Shown here piece by piece: positions 3,585 through 25,572 of a stretch of 26,224 nt of DNA. The stretch spans positions 1 to 26,224 of the forward strand of contig JBBDHZ010000144.1 in the NCBI GenBank assembly GCA_040880645.1. Direction: 5' to 3'. Each line of letters starts with the position of its first letter. Positions within the stretch are counted from its first letter, which is position 1. This stretch comes from Minisyncoccota bacterium. GTDB taxonomy: Bacteria > Patescibacteriota > Minisyncoccia > Phycocordibacterales > CSBR16-193. The position numbers and the translations under genes are program-made. The notes below the pieces were generated by a model. It had not been told where the DNA came from and did no database searches. It saw only the letters and a program-made list of their open reading frames with translations.

Positions 3585-5993
3585 TTATCTCTGTTCGACG
3601 ATTGGTCCATCGTCTGACATTCCGAGAAACTCGTAAAAGATTGCACCACCGTTGAACCTGCTAAACTTCTTCTGCATCAAGGAGAACAAACGTTCTTCGC
3701 AGGTCGAGATAATGAACTGCCTTTCGCTTGGCTTGGATGCAATGATCCCTCGAATCAATTCGACAAACCCATAGGCATTGAGATCATCGAAGTGAGTCAC
3801 GGGATCGTCGAGTAGAACAGGAGCAAAACCAGACCAGTTTTGTCGTAGTCCACCGGCAAGAAAGACGCTCAGCATGAGGATTTGCTTTTGCGAGTCGCTA
3901 AAGAAATCGGTCGGCCTCAATTGAACGTCTCTATTTCTCCATTCAACTTGAACGGCAGCCTCACCACCGCGGGCTTCGAGATGCACACCGCCGAATCCGT
4001 ACACCGATCGCAATCGTTGCTGGATGTTGGAAATTAGCGGACCATACGCGGTGATATGATTCTCGACGGACACTTGTCGTTCACGTCGCAATAGTGATTC
4101 GATCGACTTGCAACTTTCGAGGAGAGACTCGACAAGCCCTAGCTGTTGCTTGATCTGGGTGATCTGAGTGTCGAGTGCCGCAAGCTGCGCTCTCACTTGT
4201 TCGTCGCGCCTTCTGGACTGCAGGCTCGTTAGAGCAGAATGGAGAACACGTGCATCGATGATGATCTGCCGTAATAGTCTCACCGCTTCTTCGAGGTCGG
4301 TAATCGTCTTATCGGCTTGGCCTGGATCGTTGGGGAGCCGAACATCGGACAGGCGGTTCTTCAACTTGGCATATGTGCTTTCGACCTTTTCCAATTCAAC
4401 ATTCAGAGCGCGGCGACGTTTTGCGGCAGTATCCAAACGAGAGTCAACGGCCTTCGATGCCGTCTCGATCTGTTCGGCCGAACGACGTAACTCTTCAAGA
4501 GATTGAAGCGATTCTTTGAGCTTCTCTTGGATTTGGTTGATTGTGTTGTCGACCTCTGACGCGGCGATGCGTTCCTCCGCGAGTACATCGCGTGCCCTGG
4601 CCTCTTCCCGCATCAGCTCTTCCTCGACAGTCTTGCACTGGCTTCCAATGTGTGTTGTACGTGCTTGCAGCGTCGAGACGTTCTGGGCGGTGATGTCTCG
4701 TCGCGATTTGATTTCCGCACTTGTCTTAGCGCTTTGCTCGATTTCCTTCTGAAGGTTACTCCGCTTGGATTCGATCGACTTCTTGCACGAGTTGATTGCA
4801 GCCTGCTCGATTTGACGCGAGTCTTCTTGAAGCACAGCAACAGCAGCTGCGCGGTATTTGGATATTCGCGTGTTGATCGTTTCATTTTGTGACTTCAGCT
4901 GAGATTCTTCTTGCACAAGAGCTTGGACTGACGCGATTGCCTTCGAAAGCTGTTCTTGAGCGTCAGCTTCAGCGGCTCGTAGCGATGCGTATCTTGTAGC
5001 GAGTGACGAATCCGCAGATGGCTGGTTGCGATGTTGGCGGATTTGGTCAAGCAATTCTTCATGGGAGGCAAAGTCTGTTCCGCAGAGTGGGCAGTCATTG
5101 CCAGAAAGGTGGCTCTGAATAGAGTCGAGGAGTGTGTCGAGCTCCGCCTGTTCAGCTTTGGCTCGCTCGAATTCTGGTGCCAATTGCTTTCGCTCGGTTT
5201 CAGCATCCAGCGCTTTTTGTCTCAGCTGGATAACACGTTCGTCTTCCTGCTGACGGCGCGTCGCGACCTCAGCGAGTCGCGTCGTTACGTCAACCAGGTT
5301 CCGCTCTGCAGCAGCATACGCTGCGAAGCCATCCGAAAGTTGCATCACCGCATCTTGCTGAGACTGAAGGGACGCCGCCGCCTGGATCCTTCTGGCTTCT
5401 TCGGCTAAACGGGATTGCACGTCCGACTTCAGACTGGTAAGCGACAACTCGGCGGAAGCAAGACGTTTCTCCTCTGCCAACTGTTCTGACCGAAGTGTCT
5501 GTAACTGTTGCTCACGCTCAGCACGCGTTGCAAACCATTTCTTTACTGCCTCCAACTCGCGGCGGCGGTGGTCCAGTTCAATTCGTGCTGAATTTGTTGC
5601 AGTTGTTTTTGCATTTACATCGGCAATCTGTTCTTGAAGTGATTTTTTTTCGTCGGCAGTAGATGCAATCGCTTTATCTAAAGCTGCGAGGGTCTGTTTA
5701 TCCAAAGCGAGTTTGTCCGCGGCTTGATGGAACACCGGAAGTTCATTTCTCAATGCTCGCGCCGCATCGAGGCGAGTTTCCAAACCACCAACTTGCGCTG
5801 ATGCTAGATCGATCCAATCTGCGATGCTCGCCAGTGTGACTGAGCCATCAGGGAGTTTCGCGTCCAATGGAGATGCATCCACACGTCGGCGAATATTTGC
5901 GACCATTTTGTCGATTGAATCCTGTGTGTGCGATTCGCCTACTGTTGTCTCGGAAGACAGAGATTTAGAAAGCGTGCCCGCTTCGATTTCCAA
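3585..5993 (-). CDS. Rad50/SbcC-like ABC ATPase, coiled-coil + zinc-hook + C-terminal ATPase lobe (downstream part of a gene split by in-frame TAA)
   Basis: 802 aa (TTG start in track). ~600 aa are heptad/charged coiled-coil sequence with a central CPLCG zinc-hook motif (DNA ~5076-5105). The C-terminus has a degenerate ABC signature (FSDSQKQ), Walker B/D-loop (VLLDDPVTHFDD) and an H-loop-like region (FIISTCEE, with no His where one is expected). Confidence 0.8.
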   Translation of the reverse strand: MEIEAGTLSKSLSSETTVGESHTQDSIDKMVANIRRRVDASPLDAKLPDGSVTLASIADWIDLASAQVGGLETRLDAARALRNELPVFHQAADKLALDKQTLAALDKAIASTADEKKSLQEQIADVNAKTTATNSARIELDHRRRELEAVKKWFATRAEREQQLQTLRSEQLAEEKRLASAELSLTSLKSDVQSRLAEEARRIQAAASLQSQQDAVMQLSDGFAAYAAAERNLVDVTTRLAEVATRRQQEDERVIQLRQKALDAETERKQLAPEFERAKAEQAELDTLLDSIQSHLSGNDCPLCGTDFASHEELLDQIRQHRNQPSADSSLATRYASLRAAEADAQEQLSKAIASVQALVQEESQLKSQNETINTRISKYRAAAVAVLQEDSRQIEQAAINSCKKSIESKRSNLQKEIEQSAKTSAEIKSRRDITAQNVSTLQARTTHIGSQCKTVEEELMREEARARDVLAEERIAASEVDNTINQIQEKLKESLQSLEELRRSAEQIETASKAVDSRLDTAAKRRRALNVELEKVESTYAKLKNRLSDVRLPNDPGQADKTITDLEEAVRLLRQIIIDARVLHSALTSLQSRRRDEQVRAQLAALDTQITQIKQQLGLVESLLESCKSIESLLRRERQVSVENHITAYGPLISNIQQRLRSVYGFGGVHLEARGGEAAVQVEWRNRDVQLRPTDFFSDSQKQILMLSVFLAGGLRQNWSGFAPVLLDDPVTHFDDLNAYGFVELIRGIIASKPSERQFIISTCEERLFSLMQKKFSRFNGGAIFYEFLGMSDDGPIVEQR

Positions 5994-6002
5994 ACTCGCG
6001 AG

Positions 6003-7232
6003 TTAAGTGCGGAGAGCCGTCTTCTTTGTGGCAAGAATCTGTGACACGTGTTTTGACTTCCCGAGGCCGTGTGAATAGTCCTGCAGCGCAAGCATTTCGC
6101 TTACGAAGGTCTCCGGAAGTATTGACGATTTACGGAATTCAATGAGCAGTTCTTGCTCATCCTGGCCGAAAAGATGTGTCGCCCGAAACAGGTTCTCGAC
6201 GTTCTGCTGACGTGGCTTGGCTTCTCCCCATTCCGCATTCGTGAGAAAAGTGAGCGTCCCGATGCGATCACTCTTCTCCCCGTTGATCCATGCAGTAGAC
6301 CAGTTCCCAGTTCCTCGGCGTAGTACCCAATCCGAAGGATTCGAGTCATTTGAGTGGGATGTTCCGCTTAGCACCACACTGCCGGTTCCTGGCGTATCGT
6401 CCAAGTACGTCGCAACTCGCGAGAAATCTTCCTGATTGAATTTGCGCTGTCGGCACAAGCGGCCGATCCGTCCCGTGCATGCATAGTCGATGGCATCGAA
6501 GAACGAAGTCTTGCCAAGACCGTTTGGGCCATAAAGCACGACGACTGATGCATCAAGGTTGAATGCCTGTGGCTTCCGGTAAGCGCGAAAGCTTTCAATT
6601 GTCGCCTCGGTCAACCTTGATGCCATGCGGGGTTTGACCGGAGTTGCGCCTGCCGCAAGCGGGCGGCGTACTAACTCTGCGAGTAACTCCTTGCCGTTTA
6701 ACAAGTCATCGACGATACCGTCCGGCGCACGTCGCATTGGCTCTACGAGCTTCCGACTCAGTGACGTGGAAACTCCGGCGGACTGAAGTAGGTCTTGAGC
6801 GGACTGCGGTCGCGGCAGATCTAAAATGTTCTCGTCGGGAAACGGAAGAAACGGCAGCCGAAGCAATTCCTTACGCTGCTGGCCAACGTCCTCATGAGCA
6901 TGGATAACGTACTTCCTGCAGAATAGCGGGTCATGCTCGCGCTCGGCGTAGAATCTGTCGTCGTCCGCATTTTCAGACACTCGGCATAGGACAAACGAGA
7001 GCGTTCGTTTGTCCCAATCAGCGTGATGCTCTCTGTACAACTCCTTGAATTCACGATACGCGGCGTCGAACTCTTCCTCCACATGCCCGTTGAATACAGA
7101 AAACGCAGCGACATCGGCCGACATTTCGAGAACGAGCGCGCGGTCGGCACGCAACAGTTCGTACGATCCGGGCAAGATCGATTTCAGTGACTGCCGAAGC
7201 GTCTCAAATGATTCGTCGCTCTGAGACATCAA
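6003..7232 (-). CDS. Rad50/SbcC-like ABC ATPase, N-terminal part: ~200-aa unknown domain + Walker A/Q-loop head lobe (ends at in-frame TAA 6003-6005)
   Basis: 409 aa. Walker A VVLYGPNGLGKTSFFDAIDYACTG sits at ~aa 215-237. Q-loop-like ATHLFGQDEQ follows. The same reading frame continues 9 nt downstream into ORF 3585..5993. Confidence 0.75.
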   Translation of the reverse strand: MMSQSDESFETLRQSLKSILPGSYELLRADRALVLEMSADVAAFSVFNGHVEEEFDAAYREFKELYREHHADWDKRTLSFVLCRVSENADDDRFYAEREHDPLFCRKYVIHAHEDVGQQRKELLRLPFLPFPDENILDLPRPQSAQDLLQSAGVSTSLSRKLVEPMRRAPDGIVDDLLNGKELLAELVRRPLAAGATPVKPRMASRLTEATIESFRAYRKPQAFNLDASVVVLYGPNGLGKTSFFDAIDYACTGRIGRLCRQRKFNQEDFSRVATYLDDTPGTGSVVLSGTSHSNDSNPSDWVLRRGTGNWSTAWINGEKSDRIGTLTFLTNAEWGEAKPRQQNVENLFRATHLFGQDEQELLIEFRKSSILPETFVSEMLALQDYSHGLGKSKHVSQILATKKTALRT

Positions 7233-9006
7233 ATAGCTCCGAAGTAAATGACTCGAGTTCTTCGCGAGTGAATTTCCGTGCCTTGACGAGCAAAGTCTGT
7301 GCGCTCGTCATTTTTACCCCAGCCGTATGGCCCGGATCTGCGAAGCACTCCAGTTCACGTTGAAGTGGAATCGTGTTATGGCGGTCTCGGCTGATGAGGA
7401 CCATCGGCGAGTGCGTTTTGGAGGACCATTTCTCGAATGCTTCGATGCAATCCGAGTGCTTCTTTCCGCGAATTGCCGCGATCTCAACACCTGCGGATTC
7501 GTGACGCCCGTGAATGCAGGACCTGCTGACGTTGATTGATTCGACGCTTCCGACAATTGCCAGCGCGTGAACGACATGCTCTAGTCCATCTCGTTCCTCC
7601 TGATCCCATTCATCTGCCTTTGAGGCTGGATCGATTGACTCTTTCAAAGTGGCGGCGGATGCCTTCGAGAAGTGGATGTGTTCGGCGACCGTTTGTGAAG
7701 GCAACGACCGATGATCTGACACGATCGCGGCCTGTGAAGTCGCAACAGCCGCTTGAAGCGGGCATTCAAAAAGGCAGTCCGTCGCGAGATCGGACAATTG
7801 ATCAAGTTCGTCATTCACCCACTTCACGACAGCGGGCACCATTGCGCCTGGAAGCCGGGGGTCGGTCGAGACGCCGGCGAATGAGAAGACGCTTGCATCT
7901 TCTAGCGGTAGCGTTCGATCCGTCGGGTCTGGCACGACCGTTCTTGGATTGCGAATCTCGAATGCATGGAAACACTCCCCCATCTCCCTGAAGACTGCAT
8001 CCTTGCACGTTCGCAAGGCGGTCGAGTTGCGAATGCGAGCACCGGATGTGGTGAACGTCGACGGACAAGCACGCATGTCAAAAGGGGCGCGTGGGCCAAG
8101 AATCACGCTTGAGCAACCATAATCGCCATTTCGCGTGGGCGTGAGTGAACTGGCAGTGCATGCCATTAGAATCGCGACGTCGTTTCGATTGACGAAGGGA
8201 AACATCGTATCGGTGAGAAACTCCCGTGCAGCGGACAGAAAGGTATCGTCATTTGGGCGACGGTTATGCTGAAGCACAAATACCCAGTTAAGACTTTGCT
8301 GGCCTCCGCGGGAACTGCATGTGTCGTTGAATCGTTCCAGTAGTATCGCGGGAGCTGTACTTCCGTTTTCGCGACCAATCCAGTCGTAACAGAGAGCGGA
8401 AAAGAAATGGCACGGGAGGCCATCGTCAAAAGTAGCCCGAAAGAGGTGCAACGCTCGCCCTCTGAACATGCGTTGATGCGTGTCGCACGATTCTGGCCAC
8501 GAGGGAGAAAGCTTCGGCTGCAGCCACATCACAATGCCGTCCTCGCTCTTGACGATTGTCACTGAAGTGTTGATCCAAAAGTCGGCCGGAATATTGATAG
8601 GAGCGTTTGCACCCGCGACGTTTACATCTACATCATTGAGATTGGCTATAGATGCGAAGTCCTCCACTGAGAGACCGGTTACCCCTCCTACACAGACTGT
8701 CGAGCGTGAGATCGCTGCAGAGAGCATGGCGTTCTTCAGGCGTTGTACACCGGCTATTCCCGGGATCGAAAACTCAGGAAAGACAATGAATTGCGGGTCG
8801 TAGCTTCTGGCGGCACCGAACACACAATCGATACCTTGGAGAAGTCGGGACTCGCACTCGCTTGAGATTGGAAACGGTTCTTGAACCGGCTCCCTGAACG
8901 ATATGAAGGGCTGTGCGCAGACTACGCGTACCCTCTCGCTGGGCAGCGTAATGGGAAGGTCTTCTTCGATGACGGAAATCGTCTGTTGGGACATCGATCT
9001 GGCCAC
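7204..9006 (-). CDS. Nitrilase-superfamily (CN-hydrolase)-like protein with ~270-aa uncharacterised C-terminal domain
   Basis: 600 aa. Glu-Lys-Cys triad motifs in the expected order and spacing: ...DPQFIVFPEFSIPG (Glu), ...WLQPKLSPSW (Lys), ...FFSALCYDWIGRENG (nucleophile Cys in the ICYD-type motif). Start overlaps the stop of the upstream DUF499 gene (TAGTG). Its stop overlaps the SbcC-like start. Confidence 0.6.
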   Translation of the reverse strand: MARSMSQQTISVIEEDLPITLPSERVRVVCAQPFISFREPVQEPFPISSECESRLLQGIDCVFGAARSYDPQFIVFPEFSIPGIAGVQRLKNAMLSAAISRSTVCVGGVTGLSVEDFASIANLNDVDVNVAGANAPINIPADFWINTSVTIVKSEDGIVMWLQPKLSPSWPESCDTHQRMFRGRALHLFRATFDDGLPCHFFSALCYDWIGRENGSTAPAILLERFNDTCSSRGGQQSLNWVFVLQHNRRPNDDTFLSAAREFLTDTMFPFVNRNDVAILMACTASSLTPTRNGDYGCSSVILGPRAPFDMRACPSTFTTSGARIRNSTALRTCKDAVFREMGECFHAFEIRNPRTVVPDPTDRTLPLEDASVFSFAGVSTDPRLPGAMVPAVVKWVNDELDQLSDLATDCLFECPLQAAVATSQAAIVSDHRSLPSQTVAEHIHFSKASAATLKESIDPASKADEWDQEERDGLEHVVHALAIVGSVESINVSRSCIHGRHESAGVEIAAIRGKKHSDCIEAFEKWSSKTHSPMVLISRDRHNTIPLQRELECFADPGHTAGVKMTSAQTLLVKARKFTREELESFTSELFDVSERRII

Positions 9007-12000
9007 TATTCCTCTTCAAATCCTAGATTGTCGAATTTCAGTGTTCGGCAGTTTTCGGTGACGGTGCGGACGACGTTGTCGGGGACGCCTTCGGGAATTC
9101 GGACTTCGATGTCGAGGGTGACTTCGGCTTTAGCGCCCTGAAGGCCGGCGAGGTGACTCAAGACTTCTTCTGCGATGCGACCGGCGTCTCGGCCGAGACG
9201 TGTGGCGTCGAGGGTTACCTGGCCGTAGAAACGTTTCGGCTTGGCTGGCGGTGGCTCGATCGGATGTGTTCCGCCGGTGATGGTCGTGCCAGTGACCGTT
9301 GCGCCGCCGGGAGTTGGACCGGCGACCGGTGTTGTGCCGGTCCCGGTGGTTGTCGCGGCTGCCGCAGCGGCTGCAAGTTGAGCGGCCGCGATGCTGGGCT
9401 TGACGACCAAGCTTGAGTGGTCGGCGGTGACTCGCGTCATTCGACCAGCGGTCAGCCCAATGTACCGATTCCGATCGGCATCGAAATCTTGAGCGTAGGC
9501 GAATCCGTCGTCGGCCCATGTGAGCATCGAGATTCCCTGCTCGATCGAGGCAATGACGACGCGATCATTCTTCAGGCGTGGAAGATACAGATACTGGGCG
9601 AAGTCCTCGCACAATTGCTTGACCAGGACATGATTACCCCGCCAGAGCGGAATGTCGTCAAGCACCATACGCAGCAGGTTGCTGCCGTAAACCGTGACCA
9701 ACGCTCCCTGATCGGCGAGTTTCTTTGCGGCCCGCTCGGCAATGGAATCGGAGCCGCGAAGTCGGAATGCCTCGTAGCTGACCGGCTCGCTGGACTTGAG
9801 TTGAGTCGGCACAATCAGCCAGCAATACGTTTCGCTGAGACGTTGGCCGATGACGCCTTCCCACTCTTTTCGTTTAGCGTCGGCGGTGCGGATCTGCGAC
9901 TGATTCAAGTCCAGCTCTTCCCGTTTTGTGTAGATGGCATCCCACGCCATGCTCCAGCGGACGGCGTCTTCCAACTCTGTCAGCCGCGTGTGATCGGGTG
10001 CCGCGAAGACCAGCATGTTTCGATAGATGCGAGGCCCGGAGCCACGGGAGTTAAGATACGCCTCGGCTTGCTTCACGGCGCGTGAATCGGTGCTGGCCGA
10101 CGTGTGCGTATCGGCCGGTTGGAGAATGACTAGCCGAGCGGACGATTCATCGACGACCTCGGATGGCGCGGACGGGCAGGGATGGACGCGCTCAAAGTCG
10201 GCCTTGTCCTTCTCGGTGGTTTTAATGAGCTTGGTAATCCGTTCGTGAACGGCGTCGTTGCTGAAGTCCTCTTTGCGTGATTCGGCGTCACGGCTGATAT
10301 TCTGAGCGGGATCGTAGTAGGTGCGTTCGCCATCGGTGTGCAGGTATTTTGCTTTGTTCTGCAACCGCCTTAGTGCATCGCCGAACGTGGCGGTACTTTC
10401 GCCGGGCTGAACGCAGCCGAGGTTGATCTGGCGGATGTCTTTGCCGCGGTTCGCGGTTCCACGCATCGGTGCGGTGCCAAGGAACACCGTTCGAGCAACC
10501 CGCCGAGCTGCCGAAAAACGACCCAGGTTCGAGTTTTCGCGGTCAATCGAAAGTGGCGTGGAATCAGGGCCGTCCACGTCGGCTTCCACAATCACCGGCC
10601 ATGATGGCTCCAGATAACGGATTAACTCCTTGGTTACAGTTGGCTGATGCAGGGGTAACATACCGGGAAGAATCATCAGGTTCTGGTCGCCCTGCTCCCA
10701 CAGCTCGTGAATCACGGCGGCCATCAAACGCAAGACACCACGCGTGCGTTGAAACCGGTCGAGAGTCGACCATTCGGTGTAGAGCCGATCGAACAGGTCC
10801 GGGTGAATCGGGAACGCCGCCTTCATACGCTTTTCGTAGTCGGCGGATCCGGCGTCCGCGGGAAAATCCTTCCCGCCCGCTCGATAAGTTTCGATGAATG
10901 CCCGGACAACCGTATCTCGCTGGCGAAACAAATCGTCGGACACGATTGGCTTGAACAGTCGGCGGCGGACGATTTCAAAGCCTTCTTCGCTGCTGGCCGG
11001 CTGCCACGTGGCTTCTTTGCGTGCCACGACGTTCTCCAGTCGGTTCAGTGCTTCCTTGCCGGCCGTGCCCCCCAGCTCGATGTCAGATGACGGGATACTG
11101 ACGACAACAAAGGTATTCTTCGAGTCGGCCGCAGCTTCCGTCAGTGCTTGAGCGAACGTGAATTGCGTGTCGAAGCTGCCGGCCGGCAGATCATGCTTCT
11201 CGTAAAGTTGACGAGCGTAGGCAATCCATTCGTCGATCAGAATCAAACACGGACCAGCCATATCGAACAGCTTGATTAGCGAGCGGCCGGGATTCGTGCC
11301 GCTTTCGTCCGCCTGACGCACGAGTTCGTAGCCCTTCTTGCCGGCCAATTGCCACGCCATCTCCCCCCACAGAGTCCTGACTTTGGTTCCGTCCGGCATC
11401 TTGTGGACTTCGCCTGGCGACATGTACTGGCCGACCAACACACTGCGTTTCACCGTGGGGAGTTCCTCGATGCCCAATGCGGAAATCAGATCATCCACGT
11501 TGGGAAGCTGGCTGACCGGAGTGCCGGAGAACAGGTGGAACAGAGCCAGTAACGAGTGCGTCTTGCCGCCACCGAAGTTGGTTTGCAAAGCGACCACTGG
11601 GTCGCCCTTGCCTTGAACGAGCCGCTTCAGTGAATTGGTCAGCAGGTCTCGTAGCCCTTGAGTCAAATAGGTGCGGCGGAAGAACTCGACGGGATCGCCG
11701 TACTCGGCAGCGGCCCGGTTCGTGTAAACCTGATTGAGGTCGGCGGCAAACTCGGCCTGCTGGTAATTGCCGGAAGCTACGTCATCGTGCGGTTCGATGA
11801 TGTCACGCCACGAGGGCAAACCGCTGGCGGGACTTCCTTCGGTTGCTCCGGCGGCTCGACGTTTAGCATCGTGCCGAGTCTGCTCGGCCAGCTTCAACCG
11901 CATGATCTCCATCTTCTGCTGGTTGATGGCCAACGCGATGTCGCCTGCCGACACCGCTTCCAGAAGCCGTTCCATGCTGTCCATCGCCCGGTACGTATCG

Positions 12001-12299
12001 TCAGACGAGAAAGTTTTCTCGTGCGCCCATTTGTTGCGGACGTCGCGCAGCTCAGAGACGATACTCCGCTCGGCGTGGCCTAGCGTTTTGCGGAAAACCA
12101 GGTTCCAGGTTTCCCACATCGCAGCCAGATAGGCCCATGTGTCCCAGTCTTCGCCCGGATTGAAACGGAGTGTTTCGGCAACCTGCTTCTTCCAGTCGTC
12201 ACCGTAATGCGATTTCAGTTCACGTTCCACGAACGGACTGATGCCGTTTCGGAACAGCGTGATTGCCTCGCCAATTTTTTCTCGGTTGCTTTTTGCCAT
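9006..12299 (-). CDS. DUF499-family P-loop ATPase with N-terminal Swt1-like HEPN domain
   Basis: 1097 aa. N-terminal HEPN motif ...RDVRNKWAHEKTF (R-x4-H). Walker A ...LQTNFGGGKTHSLLAL. Walker B ...CLILIDEWIAY. Ala/Thr/Gly-rich linker near the C-terminus. Sits close to the DUF1156 methyltransferase gene. Confidence 0.8.
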   Translation of the reverse strand: MAKSNREKIGEAITLFRNGISPFVERELKSHYGDDWKKQVAETLRFNPGEDWDTWAYLAAMWETWNLVFRKTLGHAERSIVSELRDVRNKWAHEKTFSSDDTYRAMDSMERLLEAVSAGDIALAINQQKMEIMRLKLAEQTRHDAKRRAAGATEGSPASGLPSWRDIIEPHDDVASGNYQQAEFAADLNQVYTNRAAAEYGDPVEFFRRTYLTQGLRDLLTNSLKRLVQGKGDPVVALQTNFGGGKTHSLLALFHLFSGTPVSQLPNVDDLISALGIEELPTVKRSVLVGQYMSPGEVHKMPDGTKVRTLWGEMAWQLAGKKGYELVRQADESGTNPGRSLIKLFDMAGPCLILIDEWIAYARQLYEKHDLPAGSFDTQFTFAQALTEAAADSKNTFVVVSIPSSDIELGGTAGKEALNRLENVVARKEATWQPASSEEGFEIVRRRLFKPIVSDDLFRQRDTVVRAFIETYRAGGKDFPADAGSADYEKRMKAAFPIHPDLFDRLYTEWSTLDRFQRTRGVLRLMAAVIHELWEQGDQNLMILPGMLPLHQPTVTKELIRYLEPSWPVIVEADVDGPDSTPLSIDRENSNLGRFSAARRVARTVFLGTAPMRGTANRGKDIRQINLGCVQPGESTATFGDALRRLQNKAKYLHTDGERTYYDPAQNISRDAESRKEDFSNDAVHERITKLIKTTEKDKADFERVHPCPSAPSEVVDESSARLVILQPADTHTSASTDSRAVKQAEAYLNSRGSGPRIYRNMLVFAAPDHTRLTELEDAVRWSMAWDAIYTKREELDLNQSQIRTADAKRKEWEGVIGQRLSETYCWLIVPTQLKSSEPVSYEAFRLRGSDSIAERAAKKLADQGALVTVYGSNLLRMVLDDIPLWRGNHVLVKQLCEDFAQYLYLPRLKNDRVVIASIEQGISMLTWADDGFAYAQDFDADRNRYIGLTAGRMTRVTADHSSLVVKPSIAAAQLAAAAAAATTTGTGTTPVAGPTPGGATVTGTTITGGTHPIEPPPAKPKRFYGQVTLDATRLGRDAGRIAEEVLSHLAGLQGAKAEVTLDIEVRIPEGVPDNVVRTVTENCRTLKFDNLGFEEE

Positions 12300-12777: not shown

Positions 12778-13533
12778 TCAGAACATTTCCTGCTGCTGCG
12801 GTTGTTTATCGCGATCCTTCATGCCACGCGCCAGCCTGACAATCTCCGGCCAGCTCACGACCAAGCCGTTGTAGCTGAGGGCGTCGGCGGCTCGATGTTT
12901 GCGTTCGCAGGTGCTGTAGAGCCGGTAGGCCAATTCGCGGGCCACTTCGCCGGCTTCGCCGCCTTTGGCCTGTTGAATGTTGGCGAGCAGCTCGGCAGCG
13001 CCCGATTCGCCGTCGGATTCCAGACGGCGGATCAGGTGCTGGGTGCATTCCCAGATCGTGGACCGCCGGTCCGTTTGGGGATTCCAGTTGGCGTCGAGTT
13101 CCTCGCGCTTCAACAGCCGCACTTTGCCGGCGCGGCTGGCGAGGATGCCAGCTTCGACAACGCCGCTGACAGAGACGGCCATTGCCTTGGCCAGCGTCTC
13201 GGCATCGCCGAAGGGGCCGTCGGTCATGCCGTACTGTTCGAACCAGCGGACGGCGAAGCGGGTTTCGGCATCGAAATCGGCTTCCTGTTCGTGCAGCGCT
13301 TCGTCCAGCACCTGATTGATCATCTGCAGCGCTTCGCGGACGGACATTGGCGAGCCATCGGCATTGACCACCTGCTTGTAGCGGCTGAACACCGCCATCC
13401 CGGGCCCGATCGAAGCCTGAGCCAGATCTACTGGAGCAACGTTGCCCGATTGCAGGTGTTTGATCGCTTCGGGAAGTTCTTGGCGTAGGGCGTTGGCAAA
13501 GTCGCGACGGGTGACCGTGGAAGCCGTCGCTCG
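12778..13533 (-). CDS. C-terminal ~250 aa of the DUF1156 methyltransferase (continuation after in-frame TGA)
   Basis: Track ORF 12778..13398 (MAVFSRYKQ...LAYRLYSTCERKHRAADALSYNGLVVSWPEI...). By hand translation the same frame is open back to the TGA at 13534-13536 (...RATASTVTRRDFANALRQELPEAIKHLQSGNVAPVDLAQASIGPG-MAVFSRY...). This is contiguous with the upstream ORF. Confidence 0.7.
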   Translation of the reverse strand, partial: RATASTVTRRDFANALRQELPEAIKHLQSGNVAPVDLAQASIGPGMAVFSRYKQVVNADGSPMSVREALQMINQVLDEALHEQEADFDAETRFAVRWFEQYGMTDGPFGDAETLAKAMAVSVSGVVEAGILASRAGKVRLLKREELDANWNPQTDRRSTIWECTQHLIRRLESDGESGAAELLANIQQAKGGEAGEVARELAYRLYSTCERKHRAADALSYNGLVVSWPEIVRLARGMKDRDKQPQQQEMF

Positions 13534-15744
13534 TCATTTTCGACATACGAGAATGATTGACGATGCTAGAGCATTGGTTCCCATCCCGACACTGCGTGAT
13601 TCTCTCTCCGTTCTCATTGGCCATGTCCCGGATATGGCGAAGCCACTTCGAATCAATCCGGCTAGCATCGTCTCCCAGCCGGTTGATGACACTCCAAGAC
13701 CATCCACCGTCTTCGAGGTTTCCGCTTGTTTGAATGCATAGAAAATCGTCGCGGGATATTCATCCAATGCGACGTCATTTATGTGAGTGAACACAATTCC
13801 CAGACCATCCTCAAAAAACGTCTGTGCGTTTCGTTTGCTGCCTCCGTGGCGATGGGATGCCGCAATCAATTCGGGTCCTTTCGGAGTCAATACTGTCGAA
13901 AGTAGATTTGGATAGATTCGTGAGAGGCACCGGCGCAGCCAGATGTAGAAAAAGTCACTCAGGTCAGCGTAGCCAATGTTGTCGTAATACGGCGGATCGG
14001 TACACACCATAGCGCCGGTCACCCGAAGAGAAGTTGAAGCGTCAACTTGACTTGCAGAACCCGGTGCGCACGGACCTGCTGCTTCAATTACTTTGGAAAT
14101 CCCGCGAAGCGATACAGTCAGGTCCCCGGCAGCTCCAACGAAGGGATTCACTTCGGCGAAATACCAGATCATTGGCATGGCCTGTTTTGAAAATGCGTGA
14201 CCGGCCTGATTTCGCTGCATGATCCACGTGACAAGTGTTGAGTTGTAGTCCGTCATTTTGCTAATTCCCAACGCCAAGTAAGTGGCGACTGCGTCCGAGT
14301 ACGCATCTCCTCGGGCGCGGTCACTTTCTTGATGTTTGTGAATCAGCGAACGTGCTTCACCCACCAGCTCGGAAAACTCGGTCAACATGCGCAGTTGGCG
14401 GCGGGTAAAAACGTCGGCGAACGTCGTCAATCCGTACAATGGTGGAGAGAACCATCGCTTATCGTCTGTGATTGCCTGCTCCGCGAATGCGACGTCCATT
14501 TCGAAGTCTTGCGGAATAGAGACTGCGTCCGAGTCAACATAGATTCTGCTACCACCAGCATCGCAACAAACGCCAATCTGAACGGCGTCGGTACCGGTTT
14601 CACTGGCTATGTCCCGTAACTGCTGCTTTGTTAACGCCCTTTCGCAGAACAGGCACGTTGCTCCACTTCGGGATGACGTTGGATCCGGCACCTTGCCGTT
14701 TCGACGGACTCGAAATGAAAGCTGCTCTCCACTGACTACTGGATCGGCAAATGTCTCCTGGCCTTTCTTAATTGACAACCAGAAACTCGGCAGCAGGGGT
14801 GTCCTTTTGCGGCACGCAGGATTCGGGCACTCAATCGTTCTTGCCCATAGCCAAGCGATGACGTTCAGCTCCTTCCCGATATACGGCTCCAAATCGGGCC
14901 GGTCGGCCGCCATCTCGTCGATGACTTTCACTTTGGGATACAGGTGGCCGATGCGTTTCTCCGCTTCATCCCGCATCCATTGGCCGTAGTACCGCACGTC
15001 GTCGGCCAGTCCCTGTGCTCCGTGCCAGATCTTAGATTTCAAATTTCCGATTTGAGATTCGGGATTGACCGGCGGCAGGCCGGCGAATTTCGGCGGGATC
15101 TCGATCAGAGCCTTGTTGATCAGCACCGGCACTGGGTTCAGGTCACTGGCATGGGCCCGCAGCCCGAGTCGCTGGGCCTCCAGCGGGATCGAACCGCCAC
15201 CGGCAAACGGATCGAGCACCGGCGGAGCGTAATGAGCCAGAAAGTGATTGACCTGTTCCGGCCGCAGCGACGGCATTTTGAACCGCACGTCGTACGGCGT
15301 GTACTCCGGCGGCGGATCGGGCAGGTATTTTTCTTGTTCGTCCGGCAGCTTCGGGGCATTGGCGACGAGCGGCGTATCGTCCTTCAGCTCCTTGTCTGCC
15401 ACCTTGTTGGCGGCGATGCTGCGGGCGATCTCCAGCCGGGCCGCGTTGATGACTCGCGGATTGTTGCTGTTCTCCCACTTGACCAGTTCCTCGATCAGAT
15501 TGAACAGTTTTGCCCTCTCGGTGTACGCGATATCCTTGTCGATCCCGTACATCGGATCGTCTTCCGGATCGTTCACCAGCGACGAAAACAGCACGGCGCG
15601 ACAAGCCGCCAGCGGCCGCCTCGCCCACCACAAGTGGAGCGTGGACGGATGCCCATGTCGAATTGACTTTTCACGGGCCGATTCCTTGTTGATCGCTTCC
15701 AGCGGCAACGCCACCTCGATCAGCTTTTTGCGGTACTTGGTCAT
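13534..15744 (-). CDS. DUF1156-family Zn-ribbon N6-adenine (or N4-cytosine) DNA methyltransferase, N-terminal 736 aa (interrupted by in-frame TGA)
   Basis: N-terminus LIEVALPLEAINKESAREKSIRHGHPSTLHLWWARRPLAACRAV is the DUF1156 signature. AdoMet motif I LDPFAGGGSIPLEAQRLG. Cys4 Zn-ribbon CPNPACRK...CLFCER. Motif IV TDPPYYD. Ends ...ILVCRK-stop with conserved sequence continuing in frame. Confidence 0.85.
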   Translation of the reverse strand: MTKYRKKLIEVALPLEAINKESAREKSIRHGHPSTLHLWWARRPLAACRAVLFSSLVNDPEDDPMYGIDKDIAYTERAKLFNLIEELVKWENSNNPRVINAARLEIARSIAANKVADKELKDDTPLVANAPKLPDEQEKYLPDPPPEYTPYDVRFKMPSLRPEQVNHFLAHYAPPVLDPFAGGGSIPLEAQRLGLRAHASDLNPVPVLINKALIEIPPKFAGLPPVNPESQIGNLKSKIWHGAQGLADDVRYYGQWMRDEAEKRIGHLYPKVKVIDEMAADRPDLEPYIGKELNVIAWLWARTIECPNPACRKRTPLLPSFWLSIKKGQETFADPVVSGEQLSFRVRRNGKVPDPTSSRSGATCLFCERALTKQQLRDIASETGTDAVQIGVCCDAGGSRIYVDSDAVSIPQDFEMDVAFAEQAITDDKRWFSPPLYGLTTFADVFTRRQLRMLTEFSELVGEARSLIHKHQESDRARGDAYSDAVATYLALGISKMTDYNSTLVTWIMQRNQAGHAFSKQAMPMIWYFAEVNPFVGAAGDLTVSLRGISKVIEAAGPCAPGSASQVDASTSLRVTGAMVCTDPPYYDNIGYADLSDFFYIWLRRCLSRIYPNLLSTVLTPKGPELIAASHRHGGSKRNAQTFFEDGLGIVFTHINDVALDEYPATIFYAFKQAETSKTVDGLGVSSTGWETMLAGLIRSGFAISGTWPMRTERESRSVGMGTNALASSIILVCRK

Positions 15745-16107: not shown

Positions 16108-17754
16108 TCAGCCGGGATCTTCTTCGGAAGGTGGGCCGACGTACCAGCGGGCGTTTCGCGTTTCTCCAACGATGTGTGCTCGATTCTCGGCACGTAGATC
16201 CTCCAACAGCGTCCGCACCTCGTGCCGACTCATTTGCGGAAGAACCGACTGCAATTCTCCCATCGCGCAGCCGTCGACCACGCGATTCAACAACCTCGCC
16301 TCCAGTCGTTCCTTTTTTTCTTCGCGGTCCCGAAGTCGCTGAAACTGGGATTCCTGACCACGAAATTGATAATACGACTTGCCCAAGATAAAGCGACCAC
16401 GAACGGCGCGGAGGATAAACCCGTCTTCGAGTAACTGGTCTGTGCGATCCAGCAGCTTAGCCGGCAGCGGTTCTTCGCGGCACAACATATCGAGGACGAG
16501 CCAGTCGTCCGTGCTGAGCGATTCCAACACGGTCGCGTCAAATTGCCTCAGATATCGTACGAACTCCTTGTTTCGAACTCTTCCGTTCAGTTTGAGGCAA
16601 ACTGTGTATTGATCCGTTCCGCGAAAGTCGGGACACGATTTGCTGTCGCGAATTGCGGATTCGAACATCAAGTCCATACCCTGCCCGGCGCGCTCCACGA
16701 GGCCGCACTTCCCGAAAATCTCCGCGATGCGGCGGTTTCGCGGCGACTGGCGGTACAGAATGTTGCCAGGTGTGATCTCGGCCGGGAATCCGCCGGGACT
16801 GTCGATTTCGATCCGGTCCGGGTACTGACGAACCCAGACGTTGCTACCGAGTTGATAGTTGCGATGGCTGACCGCGTTCAGAATGGCTTCGCGAACCGCC
16901 CTTTCGCTGAAGGTCGGGACGTCCAACACAAACATGCCGTCCTGATAATGCTGCAAGTCATTCCGCAGGTTGATCAATTCCCACAACAGGTCGTACCACA
17001 GGAAGAAGGCTTCCGTGAACTCCTCGCGCTGAGCGGCGGGACCGGGGGCGTTGCTCGATCGGTATTCGAAGACGACCTCGGCCTGTGCCACGTGTTTCCG
17101 CATCGCGCGCCGACTGCCGAACAGGATCAGGCCGGCATATGTCACCTGACCATCAACGGTTGCTTCGATGTCCGAGAGCAACTGTTCCTTCGACAAGGCA
17201 GCCAGTCCGGAGTTGCCGCTCTTGTTGATCCACCGCCGCCGGAATTCTTCAACAGCCGCGTCTTCAAGATCGTCGATCGACAATCCCTCACAGACGTCGG
17301 CCGAGAAATCGTGTCCCGATTCGGCGATGATGTCACGTAGTCGTTCACCAGGCATCCCAACGAGACTGTCATTGTCTCGAATCAGATAGCGGCCTTCCCA
17401 TTGGATCGCGATGCCAACCGGCCGGCTGGGAACATGAAAAATCAAGACGCGCCCGTTCGGATGCTGAATTTCCTCGAACGTGATGCCGAGGTGCAAGCGT
17501 TGATTCAAACCGGCACGAGTTCGCTCCGGCTGATTGAAGGCATTCGATCCAACGACTTGTCGCGGACGCGCATCTGTGACACCCAAGATAATCCTGCCGC
17601 CGCCTTCGTTGGCAAGTGCCACGCAGTATTGCGTCAGTTCTTCGAAGTCATAGCGATTCCTGGCCGCCTTGAATTCGAGGTTCTCGCCTTCTGTGCCGCG
17701 CATCCACTGCTCAAGCGTTTGAGCGTCAGCCATCCTGCTTACCCTCCTCGACAC
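16108..17754 (-). CDS. AlbA_2 (Schlafen-like DNA-binding) + HATPase_c_4 domain protein, putative regulator/sensor
   Basis: 548 aa. N-terminus ENLEFKAARN...ELTQYCVALANEGGGRIILGV fits the AlbA_2 'putative DNA-binding' domain. Middle ...AVREAILNAVSHRNYQLGSNVWVRQYPDRIEIDSPGGFPAEI fits the RecG-C-terminal/HATPase_c_4 family. Start overlaps the stop of the upstream GHKL gene. Confidence 0.75.
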   Translation of the reverse strand: MSRRVSRMADAQTLEQWMRGTEGENLEFKAARNRYDFEELTQYCVALANEGGGRIILGVTDARPRQVVGSNAFNQPERTRAGLNQRLHLGITFEEIQHPNGRVLIFHVPSRPVGIAIQWEGRYLIRDNDSLVGMPGERLRDIIAESGHDFSADVCEGLSIDDLEDAAVEEFRRRWINKSGNSGLAALSKEQLLSDIEATVDGQVTYAGLILFGSRRAMRKHVAQAEVVFEYRSSNAPGPAAQREEFTEAFFLWYDLLWELINLRNDLQHYQDGMFVLDVPTFSERAVREAILNAVSHRNYQLGSNVWVRQYPDRIEIDSPGGFPAEITPGNILYRQSPRNRRIAEIFGKCGLVERAGQGMDLMFESAIRDSKSCPDFRGTDQYTVCLKLNGRVRNKEFVRYLRQFDATVLESLSTDDWLVLDMLCREEPLPAKLLDRTDQLLEDGFILRAVRGRFILGKSYYQFRGQESQFQRLRDREEKKERLEARLLNRVVDGCAMGELQSVLPQMSRHEVRTLLEDLRAENRAHIVGETRNARWYVGPPSEEDPG

Positions 17755-20700
17755 CGGAGGCGTCGGAGTGATGGTAAACGAGGCGGTAGTTGGCCGGATG
17801 CAAAGTCAGTCGATCTTGCGACCGAAGGCGAAGAAGTTCCGCACCGGAATACACAATCGCCTGGTCATTCGGGTCGCGAAGAACGATCGAATACCCATCG
17901 CTGTGGCGTTCGCACAGATTCCAGATGGCTGCGTCTAGTTGTAGTGGCTCTCGCTCAATACAGCAATCCTTCACCCAATAGCTTTGCACTAGCTCACCGC
18001 CACCAGAGTATCGCTCCCAGGGAAACGCATTTCCGCTGGACTTTTGAATCCAACCGCCATCCGCATGAAAGAAGCGATCGGTGCCGTCTTTCGAAAAACC
18101 AGCAGCCGCTGCCATCAACTCAATCAAGTGTGGCTTGGGTGTCTTTCGCGGCGGCGGCGGCTTCGGCGTTTCATCGTCGTTGTCCTCGTCGTCTAGTTCA
18201 TCGTCAGCGTCGACTTGCTGATCGTCGTCGTCGACATCGTCATCGTCGGCCGGATCATCAACGACATCGGCGTCGCCATCAGCATGTTGATCTTCGATAT
18301 CTGCATCTTGATCAGCATCGACGACATCTGAGGAGTTAGAGGCTTCTGCTTTTGGGTCTTCAGTATCTTCTGTTTCATCGTCTGCGACTTCGTCCGAAGC
18401 TGTCTCGTCGTTTGAATCGTCAACAGCAGGCTGGGGAGGGATGGCGTCTGGTGGCGACAACCGGAAGTTCTCTTCGAGGTACTCCTGAATGAATTCCGGA
18501 GATCGTTCCACGCAGGCGCGGATCGCGTCGCCGATGTCGCTGCGATCGAAGACGCGTGCGATCTCCTGCGTGATCGACTTGAAGAGCTGAGCGACGGGAC
18601 GGTCGTCAACATACAGCCGGTCATCCTTCCAAAGCACATGAATTCGGCGAGACGTGCCGGCCGGCGTGCCGTCGATGTAGGGAATCGATTCCAGTCCAGT
18701 CGCTACTTGCCAGAGTGTCGTGGCGATCCGATGCCCAAGTTGCCGAACAGTATCCTGCTGGTCCTGCTCATCAAGTTCGATTCGGGCGATCCCCTGACCC
18801 AATGCCAGCATCCATGCCTTTGGAACCGGCTGTGCCAAGCCGAACAAGCTTTCCGAGAACTGATCCTCGATGCGGCTGGCCAAGGTTGGCAAGTCGCTGA
18901 ATGGCGATTGCCGGCACGTTTCAGCATCCAATCGCTGCATGTCGGCCGTCGTCTGCTTGACCGGCTGGAACAAGTGACTCCAGGACACGAGCGACTGCAT
19001 CGTCAGCGAATACTTGAGAGTCGATGTCTCCGCCCATTGCCCGTCAAGACTCAGCCAGTGCCCACACTCTTCCCAGATCCGAAGAGGGAACTTTGGTAAC
19101 AATGCTCGGACACGTCGCAATTCGTCGGCACTCAGCTTTTTCCCTGACGGGAGATCCGTCAGCCATTCGATGGCGAGATCGGCACTCGGTCGCTCGGCAA
19201 CCCCGATCTTCTGCCACAACGTCAAATGTCTAACGGACGCATGAACCAACGGTGCGTCCGGGACATCTTCTTCCGATGCGTTCAGAAAAACTTCTGCCTT
19301 GCTACACCAATGACCATCATGTGTGAGAATCAACGACTCCGTGGCAAACGAGTGCTGTATGGTTTGCGACTCAGCGGTCGAACACTTCAGAAGGAGTTGA
19401 TCGAGCCGGTGATACCATTTTTCAACTTCAAACACTGGCGGTTCCTTGACTCCCACAAACGTGCGCAGCCTATCAAGAAGTCGCTTAGGGCCAGTCGGTG
19501 TGGCACCAACGCCAAGCAATTCCAACAACGGTCGCGTGTGTTCGTTATCGTCATCAATTCGCACAAAGGGTTCGACATCTAGCAATGCTTCGGTGGCCGG
19601 AGTGCGCCGCAGCAACTCAGCCGGCTTTCGACACTGTCCACGAGTGTCGACGAGGCAGGGCAGATCGCGGAGCTTTACCAACCATGCCGACGGCACTTTT
19701 GACGCGACAGTTCTTCGACGCCCGTTCTTCGCAACTTCAGAGACTGTTGCTTCTTTAGCTCTATTGGTGTACTCAGCCGGTCGTTGAAAGAGGCGAGACA
19801 GAAGTTGTGACCAGAATGTCGAATCGTCTTTCGCAGCGCGTTTCCAGTGCATCCAGTGCTTAGTCGAGAAGTCCAAGTCGTCGATCATAAACTCGTCCGT
19901 CGAGTAACGAAAGAAAAGTTCTTCCGAGTGATTTCGCTTTCGCAACTCTGCCTCAAGCTGTTGTCGCCCCCAGACGTTTTCTATTGAACCAGCCAATGGG
20001 ACGAAGGTGAGCAGTTTACTTTTGCCGCTCAATATCCACCGTTCCCATTCGAGTTGGCTGCAAGAAACAAAGTTCTGGTTGTAGTCGTCATGAAGTACGT
20101 GCTGCTCGTACCACTGGTTGTCGACGAATCGATCCAATTGTCCGTCAACATCGACGGCAATAGTTTCGCCGCTCGTGGATCGCAAGTCATTCTGCATGAC
20201 AAACTGAAACTGGTCTGTTACCGTAGCCCCAAGTCTCGCTGCGATCTGTGCGATTCGAATACAGTCTTCAATTGGGTAATCCTCAATTGCAAACGCCTTT
20301 GCGGCAACCGTCTCAATAATGCGACCGACATCGGTTGATTCATAGAGATCGAGAGAGACCAGCACTAACTGAGCGGCTGCCCAAGCGTTATGCAGACTGT
20401 CGTTCTTTTCGTCATCCGCTATTCGGCGTTGCTCCGCCAGGTAGCGAGGCCAGTTCTGATTGATGACCAACAAGTACTGCGAAAGGAAGTCCCAGTCGTC
20501 CTCGGAATGGAGAAGCCTCTTCTCGCCAAGGCGGACAACCTCGTCGGCTGAGTAGAGCACGTCGCGGCTTTGAACAGGAATAATTCGCACACCCTTACGC
20601 GATCTTCCATCGTAATGCTTCTTGCTGACGGCGTCGGAGACATAAGACCATAACGACAGGAGCTGCCGCCAAGATCCAGGGCGAGGCAGATGTTTCTGAC

Positions 20701-25000: not shown

Positions 25001-25572
25001 TAAGCGGATTCGAACTTGTCGTTCGTCATGATCTCGAACGGCAACTGGAATTTCTCGCTGAGTTCGTCCTGCCACTGCTCGACCAAATTGCCCGGCGCGA
25101 CGATCATGCAGCGTTTCAAATCGCCACGAACGATCAACTCCTTGATCAACAGGCCCGCCATGATCGTTTTACCCGCACCGGGGTCGTCGGCCAGAAGGAA
25201 TCGCAGCGGCTGCCGCGTAAGCATTTCGTCGTAGACGGCCGTGATCTGGTGCGGAAGTGGTTCGACAAGCGAAGTGTGGACAGCAAGAACCGGATCAAAC
25301 AGATATGCAAGCTGAATCCGCAACGCCTCTGAGACAAGGCGAAAGAGACTGCCGTCGCCGGTAAAGCTCCACGGCCGCCCTGCTTCGACGAGTTCCAGCG
25401 TGGGCTCTCGATCGCGATAGAGGATTTCTTGATCGGTGGTGCCGTCTGGACCTTCGTAGACGATCTTCAACGCGTTCGAGCCAATCGGCTTTGCATCGAT
25501 GATCTTTACGGATGCATTGGCCAGGATGCCTTTGACGGTTGCGCCTTTCGTGATTTCTTCAAGTCGTGCCAT
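22063..25572 (-). CDS. SNF2-family (DEAH) helicase with C-terminal DUF3883/NOV_C-like restriction-endonuclease-fold domain
   Basis: 1169 aa. Motif I LLADDPGAGKT. Motif II VVVDEAHKM. Motif III LLMSATPHNG. Helicase-C motifs ...LLATDAAGEGINLQ and QRFGRIHRIGQ. C-terminus ...CGYDIESIDGQTKRLRFIEVKGR...TRNEIVTG...FILAIV resembles the D..E.K DUF3883 core. Confidence 0.85.
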   Translation of the reverse strand: MARLEEITKGATVKGILANASVKIIDAKPIGSNALKIVYEGPDGTTDQEILYRDREPTLELVEAGRPWSFTGDGSLFRLVSEALRIQLAYLFDPVLAVHTSLVEPLPHQITAVYDEMLTRQPLRFLLADDPGAGKTIMAGLLIKELIVRGDLKRCMIVAPGNLVEQWQDELSEKFQLPFEIMTNDKFESAYSGNWFLENDLIICRLDKLSRNESVQDKLHVTDWDLVVVDEAHKMSASLFGNEVKETKRHKLGRLLEKLTRHFLLMSATPHNGKEEDFQLFMRLLDGDRFEGNFRPGVHTCDASDLMRRMVKEDLLKFDETRLFPERKAYTVNYKLSDEEDVLYNEVTEYVRTEFDRAKALENDGRKGTVGFALTILQRRLASSPEAIFHSLRRRRERLESRREEVKLIRRGETARIDFTAGLPMLESDDDIEDFEDRPGTEFEDAEEDILDQATAAQTIAELELEIERLKELEALAGRVRSSGKDKKWEQLSSILQENEHMFDEFGNRRKLVIFTEHRDTLNYLHNRITTLLGLPEAVVTITGGMLREHRKDAQDRFTHDKETLVLLATDAAGEGINLQQAHLMVNYDLPWNPNRLEQRFGRIHRIGQTNVCHLWNLVAGETREGDVFRRLLEKLEVEREALGGAVFDVLGKAIEGRRLRDLLQEAILYGKQPEVRAKLKEKVEGALDHSRLRELIEERSLGHETMDTSRVRELRATMERANARRLQPHFIATFFRDAFAHLGGKLRERESKRFEISHVPADIRNRDRQIGTRNKLQRQYERITFDKQLINVDGQRQAAFVCPGHALLDTCIDLILERYRDLLKQGAILINECDPTEDVRALFYLEHTIQDGRTTDSGVRRAVSRQLQFVTIDRDDMVRSAGYAPYLDYRPATVDELAKIQPLLDEEWLAWDLEERAIEYAISELVPRHVQEVRGRKDALIDKTIQAVTERLTKEYMHWDNRAQQLKAQEEAGRTPKLNSRKAEQRADELQTRLKKRLEELEQEKQLSPKAPIAVGGALVLSNGMLRKLCGYQSTTDDIQARETKRVELLAMRAVMEAEETLGHSPRDVSEDKCGYDIESIDGQTKRLRFIEVKGRVVGADTVTITRNEIVTGINSATSFILAIVQVDGDTPLAPVYVRTPFEREPDFDVTSVNYKLNEMLQRGGPPA

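Follow-up and report, generated by a model that had tools for sequence, protein, structure and literature searches.

A probable Lamassu-family module with a nitrilase-fold effector appended to an Hma defense operon

Contig JBBDHZ010000144.1 (26,224 bp, analyzed over its entire length and hereafter called the window) comes from a metagenome-assembled genome (MAG) labeled 'Candidatus Paceibacterota bacterium' by NCBI. With a probability of roughly 0.85, the two genes at positions 3585–9006 form a two-gene anti-phage module of the Lamassu family, also known as ABC-three component (ABC-3C) systems, that is appended to an Hma defense operon. The first gene, lmuA, would encode the effector, with a predicted nitrilase fold, and the second, lmuB, a sensor ATPase of the SMC/Rad50 type. 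In this copy lmuB is interrupted by an in-frame stop codon, and the module has probably been inactivated by it. All coordinates given below for genes and protein features lie on the minus strand.

The Lamassu assignment

The name of the system was taken from PADLOC-DB v2 (2023), whose Lamassu models PDLC03850 (LmuA) and PDLC03861 (LmuB) match the two products almost end to end. The product of lmuA (7204..9006, 600 aa) is matched over residues 10–557 with E = 2.3e-133. The lmuB frame (3585..7232, 1,215 codons including the internal stop) is matched in two pieces, the N-terminal open reading frame (ORF) covering positions 39–401 of the 1213 in the model with E = 4.2e-99 and the C-terminal ORF covering positions 428–1210 with E = 5.7e-97, and three further LmuB models match with E between 1e-22 and 1e-39. 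The features that mark a Lamassu system were found in the window, namely a split-head LmuB with a coiled coil, a two-domain LmuA, a middle component, which type I Lamassu lacks and which is fused here, and a conserved operon. Not all components are intact, the TAA in lmuB being the exception, and this bears on the function of the present copy and not on its membership of the family. Compared with the Lamassu entries of PADLOC-DB v2, the window has the same order of lmuA followed by lmuB, the same N-terminal position of the effector domain in LmuA and the same number of genes; no difference was found at the level of the family, and the nonsense codon in lmuB is peculiar to this copy.

An earlier note on this DNA, made from the sequence alone, had described the pair as a candidate undescribed defense module, on the grounds that no named system was known to combine such genes and that Lamassu systems carry different effectors. 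Neither ground holds, for the pair matches an already named system in PADLOC, an outcome that the earlier note had itself set against its proposal, and a 2023 review that equates Lamassu with ABC-3C systems lists 'C-N hydrolase' among the N-terminal effector domains of LmuA, citing Millman 2022 and Krishnan 2020 (PMC10586767). An undescribed system separate from Lamassu could be argued for from the absence of any significant LmuA family in Pfam, NCBIfam or PHROGs, from an LmuB that exceeds the lengths of the published Lamassu classes, and from a C-terminal domain (CTD) of LmuA that is unlike those of the solved LmuA structures. These points have to be set against hidden Markov models of Lamassu that match both proteins with E of 1e-97 to 1e-133, the three additional LmuB models, a middle component that belongs to a Pfam ABC-3C family, and the prior listing of the effector type in the literature. 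A separate system is therefore refuted at the level of cataloging, and we consider it extremely improbable. The system type is already cataloged, and is under-described and not new. Its likely counterpart in DefenseFinder is the subtype 'Lamassu-Amidase', presumably defined by lmuA and lmuB only. A literature search for 'Lamassu-Amidase' and variants of this name, and for ABC-3C systems with a nitrilase, returned nothing, and the word 'amidase' does not occur in the accessible part of the supplementary text of Millman 2022.

The effector LmuA

The lmuA gene lies immediately downstream of hmaC, which encodes HEPN_Swt1 and DUF499 domains, and can be started either at GTG 9006 (600 codons) or at ATG 8994, as in the NCBI annotation (596 aa). 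Its N-terminal nitrilase, or CN-hydrolase-fold, domain spans approximately residues 10–375 (7882..8979) and contains the motifs FPEF, QPKLSPSWPE and ALCYDW, which supply the catalytic residues Glu 78 (8773–8775), Lys 165 (8512–8514) and Glu 172 (8491–8493), and Cys 206 (8389–8391), respectively. Contexts of the form FPE, K-x6-E and CYD are typical of the nitrilase family. The earlier note had placed a Glu-Lys-Cys triad in FPEF, PKL and ALCYDW; the motifs are where it located them, and E78 (FPE), K165 and E172 (K-x6-E) and C206 (CYDW) are invariant in 47 aligned homologues with 28–71% identity. The nitrilase fold that it had proposed was likewise supported by structure prediction. An alignment-based AlphaFold2 model of LmuA (predicted local distance difference test, pLDDT, 92.6; predicted template modeling score, pTM, 0.91) contains two domains, of which the N-terminal one is a predicted four-layer alpha-beta-beta-alpha sandwich, and all 31 of the 31 Foldseek matches to the model at E < 0.005 are members of the nitrilase superfamily. 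This predicted structure confirms the nitrilase fold of LmuA, and the invariance of the four residues in the alignment confirms its catalytic Glu-Lys-Glu-Cys set.

Within the superfamily LmuA appears from its sequence to be a very divergent branch. Its identity to the nitrilase enzymes Nta1 (N-terminal amidase, 5b62), Nit2 (omega-amidase, 2w1v), XC1258 (2e11) and the glutaminase domain of NAD+ synthetase is only 9–17%, and it is about equally far from all characterized nitrilase branches. The nitrilase domain is some 100 aa larger than the enzymes of the superfamily and is fused to the Lamassu CTD. Homologues of LmuA number 123 in a collection of 5.8 billion proteins, and none of them carries a precomputed Pfam domain. 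When 1.84 billion cluster representatives were searched with a HMMER profile, 637 proteins matched at E ≤ 1e-3, and the stricter limit of E ≤ 1e-30 was passed by 266. Most of the full-length matches are about 600 aa long; judged by these searches the LmuA family is small, tight and rare. Nothing useful was retrieved when the LmuA profile was searched against the sequences of the PDB.

The CTD of LmuA (residues 385–600, 7207..7854) is made up of a helical part and an alpha/beta part, and when modeled separately it reached a pLDDT of 93.6. It is presumed to be a docking or oligomerization domain, and it matches the verbal description of the CTD of 'long' Lamassu LmuA as helices plus a beta-sheet (PMC12663957). 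A restriction-endonuclease-like fold of the CTD is a lead, and in one alternative reading the killing activity resides in the CTD and the nitrilase-fold domain is regulatory or sensory. The conserved polar residues of the CTD (K395, D399, D402, R433, D465, H477, H517, C520, D541 and N544) do not form a recognizable D...(D/E)xK motif, the invariance of the nitrilase catalytic residues argues for an active enzyme in the N-terminal domain, and in every Lamassu system studied the N-terminal domain acts as the effector and the CTD has no catalytic role. We therefore regard a catalytic CTD as improbable and retain the N-terminal nitrilase-fold domain as the likely effector.

The ATPase LmuB and its premature stop

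Translation of lmuB probably begins at ATG 7229, which is preceded by GGAG, and the beginning of the gene overlaps the lmuA stop by 26 nt. When read through the internal stop, the protein contains a Walker A motif (GPNGLGKTS, aa 235–243, 6504..6530), a Q-loop, a CPLCG zinc hook in the middle of the coiled coil (aa 714–718, 5079..5093) and a C-terminal head half (3804..3902) with the signature FSDSQ (3888–3902) and the Walker B motif VLLDD (3804–3818). Across the 39 relatives of alignment A3 the hook residues C714 and C717 (numbered as in the window copy) do not vary, and conservation of the next Gly is 90% or more; in a 55-sequence alignment that includes the window copy, both Cys residues and the Gly are at least 90% conserved. 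The coiled coil is approximately 650 aa long (about aa 385–1060), and its profile matches the coiled coils of myosin, Rad50 and SMC proteins. Searches of PDB sequences with both LmuB fragments gave nothing useful, the LmuB profile retrieving mainly coiled-coil proteins.

The N-terminal 200 or so residues of LmuB (6633..7232) correspond to ABC-3C middle component 1 (MComp1), which is LmuC-like. Pfam PF20289 (MComp1) is the sole family that matches this region, with E = 1.4e-3 and a score under the gathering threshold for the window protein, and it matches 43 of the 46 homologous LmuB N-termini, the best with E = 5.3e-8. Two of the homologues are named 'ABC-three component system middle component 1' by NCBI. 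By sequence, the LmuC equivalent is fused to the N-terminus of LmuB, and this fusion explains why a separate lmuC gene is lacking; clustering of the neighbors of lmuA and lmuB gave no third conserved gene common to more than three loci.

The zinc hook, the long coiled coil and the hhhhDD form of Walker B are common to LmuB and SbcC/Rad50, and Lamassu has been proposed to be a derivative of SbcCD (PMC12663957), so that a housekeeping repair complex of the SbcCD/Rad50-Mre11 type, with its nuclease replaced by a nitrilase-fold protein, has to be considered. The models for such proteins fit LmuB poorly, however: in NCBIfam the sbcc model TIGR00618 scores 19 bits against a cut-off of 478, the Rad50 models score 14–33 bits against cut-offs of 450–1087, and the SMC and RecF models are also far under their cut-offs. 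The metallophosphoesterase partner of SbcCD and Mre11-Rad50 is missing, neither a gene nor a motif for an SbcD/Mre11-type enzyme being present, as the earlier note had correctly observed, and metallophosphoesterase matches are far weaker than those to nitrilases. The family occurs in only 69 of 185,579 species genomes, with a patchy distribution, in defense and mobile contexts, and is often disrupted. A housekeeping complex is accordingly a very remote alternative to a Lamassu module. Wadjet (JetABCD) was excluded as well, as the SMC protein JetC gives only a marginal match (E = 8e-4) and the kleisin JetA, the KITE protein JetB and the Toprim protein JetD are all absent.

The earlier note was right that the hydrolase gene follows the HEPN-DUF499 gene directly, the translational coupling that it had described agrees with the overlap of the two genes, and its Rad50/SbcC-type ATPase is borne out by the ABC motifs, the hook and the coiled coil. 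It had read this ATPase as one intact gene, and that part does not stand, for it missed an in-frame TAA at codon 410 (6003..6005), where the N-terminal head half meets the coiled coil; this stop divides lmuB into two ORFs of the same frame, 6003–7232 (409 aa) and 3585–5993 (802 aa). In L001, the 71%-identical relative, the codon opposite the stop is CAA (Gln), and a single C>T nonsense change on the coding strand thus explains it. In the closest relative, a 27.6-kb contig with a 71% identical LmuA and a shared Hma/TmtA-like/AlbA/Lamassu synteny, lmuB is one ORF of 1,216 aa, and in about 50 of the 58 assessable relatives it is a single uninterrupted ORF of 1,203–1,220 aa. A second nonsense codon is present in the island, in the DUF1156 methyltransferase gene hmaB (12778–15744), where an in-frame TGA (13534–13536) is found in place of the Arg (CGC) of a 47%-identical relative and homology runs for a further 252 codons, up to the natural stop at 12778–12780. 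The simplest explanation of this TGA would be a C>T change in CGA. Together, the stop in hmaB and the broken Lamassu sensor suggest either decay of the island or an error-prone assembly.

As the nonsense codon of lmuB truncates the protein past the N-terminal half of the head, the module most likely does not work, barring an assembly error at this codon, and on this evidence we regard the copy as probably inactivated. The competing view is that the module functions in the organism, either because TAA 6003–6005 is an error or because the separate LmuB fragments reassemble into a working head. In its favor, the part of lmuB beyond the stop has kept its frame and remains well conserved, which makes the change recent at most, the contig derives from a MAG, and SMC/Rad50 head halves can reconstitute when they are expressed separately. 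On the other hand, hmaB also has an in-frame stop, which suggests genuine decay or an assembly that is error-prone throughout, no convincing ribosome-binding site precedes the first start codons of the C-terminal LmuB fragment, and about 8 of 58 related loci are likewise broken by insertion sequence (IS) elements or frameshifts, indicating that loss of lmuB is common. A functional module is thus unlikely, if still a serious contender, and an inactivated copy is preferred.

Stop-codon reassignment and programmed readthrough were rejected, since TGA, TAG and TAA all terminate normal genes of the window, the relatives have Gln (CAA) and Arg (CGC) at the positions of the two stops, and about 50 relatives have uninterrupted lmuB ORFs. 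A programmed split of LmuB, to which N-terminal fragments of 344–450 aa found elsewhere might have pointed, was also rejected, since the breaks are heterogeneous (an IS insertion, frameshifts and a gap). The search that gave these fragments returned no full-length LmuB and was thus biased to short fragments.

Distribution, genomic setting and proposed mechanism

Among 185,579 genomes, one per GTDB species, 69 lmuA loci were found. They are patchily spread over Acidobacteriota, Alpha-, Beta- and Gammaproteobacteria (including Bradyrhizobium, Janthinobacterium, Massilia, Variovorax, Thauera, Comamonas, Achromobacter and Marinobacterium), Verrucomicrobiota, Omnitrophota, Nitrospira, Dehalococcoidia, Bacillota, a Synechococcus MAG and one Asgard MAG. 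The pairing on which the earlier note had built is strict: wherever a locus offers sufficient sequence, lmuB is the next gene after lmuA, both in these species genomes and in metagenome contigs. Intact pairs are present, for example, in Janthinobacterium sp. FT68W (NZ_WFLJ01000002.1), Bradyrhizobium sp. LMG 9283 (CP120691) and Thauera terpenica 58Eu. Six places have Hma genes beside the pair (the 27.6-kb contig and loci L001, L002, L011, L020 and L039), and in other loci the pair sits by itself amid integrases, transposases, DruA, a Schlafen-type helicase, HNH, and DndD-like or BREX-like genes, with GmrSD also among the neighbors. The strict pairing, the defense and mobile neighbors and the patchy spread form the pattern of a mobile, autonomous defense module that is at times appended to or embedded in larger systems. 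A tblastn search with LmuA gave no matches in 72,556 plasmids or 50,697 phage records. About 8 of the 58 species genomes that could be assessed have a broken pair, the causes being IS insertions, frameshifts and truncations; disrupted loci are L005, L006, L007/L066, L012, L034, L047, L057, L070 and L072. Massilia forsythiae has an IS element within lmuB, Variovorax sp. E3 and Giesbergeria have frameshifts, and in other cases lmuA carries an insertion or is truncated. Such frequent disruption would fit a frequently lost module that is costly or toxic.

The window system shares with the ABC-3C systems of Krishnan, Burroughs, Iyer and Aravind (2020) a coiled-coil ABC ATPase, a middle component and an effector whose N-terminal enzymatic domain varies, the C-N hydrolase being among the effectors listed (PMC10586767) and MComp1 (PF20289) being detected here, but in those systems the middle component is encoded by a separate middle gene, whereas here it is fused to the N-terminus of the ATPase. 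With type II Lamassu/DdmABC of Vibrio cholerae and Salmonella LmuACB it would share the logic of an SMC-like sensor and an effector sequestered via its CTD. The effector of those systems is a Cap4 nuclease, their LmuB (about 600 aa) often has no zinc hook, their LmuC (MC3) is separate and their CTD is a helical bundle, whereas in the window the effector has a nitrilase fold, LmuB reaches about 1,210 aa and has a zinc hook, MC1 is fused and the CTD is larger and of the alpha/beta type. In a 2025 classification (PMC12663957), LmuB is either short (about 600 aa) or long (about 800 aa), and the effectors named are Cap4, Mrr, Protease, Sir2, FMO, HNH, SMEK and Lipase, an amidase not appearing in the text. 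'Long' Lamassu of that scheme has the hhhhDD Walker B and the single CxxC zinc hook seen here, and differs in the length of LmuB, in its separate LmuC and in its effectors (Cap4, Mrr, Protease, Sir2 and FMO, with no amidase). On the sequence features of LmuB, that is a length of about 1,210 aa, the single zinc hook and the hhhhDD Walker B, the clade appears closest to 'long' Lamassu. SbcCD and Mre11-Rad50 have a long coiled-coil ABC ATPase with a zinc hook in common with the window system, and differ from it in their metallophosphoesterase partner and in context, which here is one of defense genes and mobile elements.

The earlier note had further suggested that the hydrolase is an effector gated by a DNA-sensing SMC-like ATPase. 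This is the accepted model of Lamassu action and fits everything found here. Sequestration, release and oligomerization have been demonstrated for Cap4-type Lamassu (PMC12663957; bioRxiv 10.1101/2025.03.14.643221 and 10.1101/2025.06.23.660979), and from that analogy we infer the corresponding steps, the abortive outcome and the kind of substrate for the nitrilase-fold type. An LmuB dimer with its middle component would hold one LmuA as an inactive monomer through the LmuA CTD. Binding of DNA ends or replication structures of an invading phage or plasmid by the LmuB head and middle component, with ATP, would release LmuA, and the freed LmuA would oligomerize to its active form, in line with the requirement of nitrilase-fold enzymes for at least a dimer. 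Active LmuA would then abort the infection by hydrolyzing an amide bond of a protein or other molecule essential to the cell.

Several points weigh against parts of this reading and need to be set beside the evidence for it. Pfam CN_hydrolase (PF00795) does not match the LmuA of the window and matches 3 of 47 homologues, with E of about 0.01; a routine domain scan could thus not have confirmed the nitrilase assignment of the earlier note, and, support at the sequence level being this weak, the fold was assigned from the predicted structure together with the invariant residues. As LmuA is about equally distant from all nitrilase branches, its substrate cannot be read from homology. The CTD shows no detectable likeness to solved LmuA CTDs, none of which is among the structure-search matches, and its docking or oligomerization role is thus assumed from position alone. 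An LmuB of about 1,210 aa lies outside the published classes of about 600 and 800 aa, and the mechanism of short Lamassu may not be transferable to it. No report of an experimental test of the C-N hydrolase effector subtype was found in the literature. Finally, with regard to the inactivation of this copy, the stop in lmuB could be an assembly or sequencing error of the MAG.

The genes of the window form one minus-strand array from about 25.6 kb down to 3.6 kb, identified with Pfam and PADLOC. It begins with hmaA, an SNF2 helicase with a NOV_C domain (22063–25572, PADLOC E = 0), followed by a TmtA-like HATPase/sacsin protein of 1,440 aa (17726–22048), an AlbA_2/HATPase_c_4 protein (16108–17754), hmaB, hmaC (9006–12299) and then lmuA and lmuB. 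The TmtA-like and AlbA_2 genes lie between hmaA and hmaB, as they do in the 71%-identity relative contig, and this placement fits the pattern of Hma systems with embedded defense genes that has already been described (bioRxiv 10.1101/2024.01.29.577857). The N-terminus of HmaC is a Swt1-like HEPN domain (Pfam E = 1e-34) joined to the DUF499 ATPase; the HmaC of the relative at locus L002 is 946 aa long, and HEPN_Swt1 is absent from its listed Pfam matches. A tRNA-like element is found on the plus strand at 1027–1090 (Rfam RF00005, 50.9 bits, model positions 5–66 of 71), for which ARAGORN makes no call and which has an acceptor stem of only 3 bp, C at position 33, GCU at the anticodon and a short variable arm; lying some 2.5 kb past the end of the defense operon, it may be a degenerate tRNA or the remnant of an integration site. 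The GC content of the contig is 52–61%, and its content is that of a defense island almost throughout. The phyla in which its Lamassu genes have relatives include Proteobacteria and Acidobacteriota, and the label Paceibacterota is absent from all 69 GTDB loci. The contig may have been mis-binned into the Paceibacterota MAG.

The locus is best annotated as Lamassu-family with a CN-hydrolase effector and an LmuC-LmuB fusion, a probable pseudogene copy attached to Hma. As a tentative proposal, which we consider possible and do not favor, the clade would make up a third architectural class of Lamassu, characterized by a coiled coil of SbcC length in an LmuB of about 1,210 aa, an MC1 fused to the N-terminus of LmuB and a restriction-endonuclease-like LmuA CTD, with an effector that aborts infection by amide hydrolysis, such as the deamidation of a protein, NAD+ or glutamine. 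We know of no anti-phage effector for which amide-bond hydrolysis has been demonstrated. The wider question raised by the family is what a nitrilase-fold Lamassu effector hydrolyzes, and the intact homologues in cultivable Janthinobacterium, Bradyrhizobium, Thauera, Massilia and Comamonas make this question of substrate testable.

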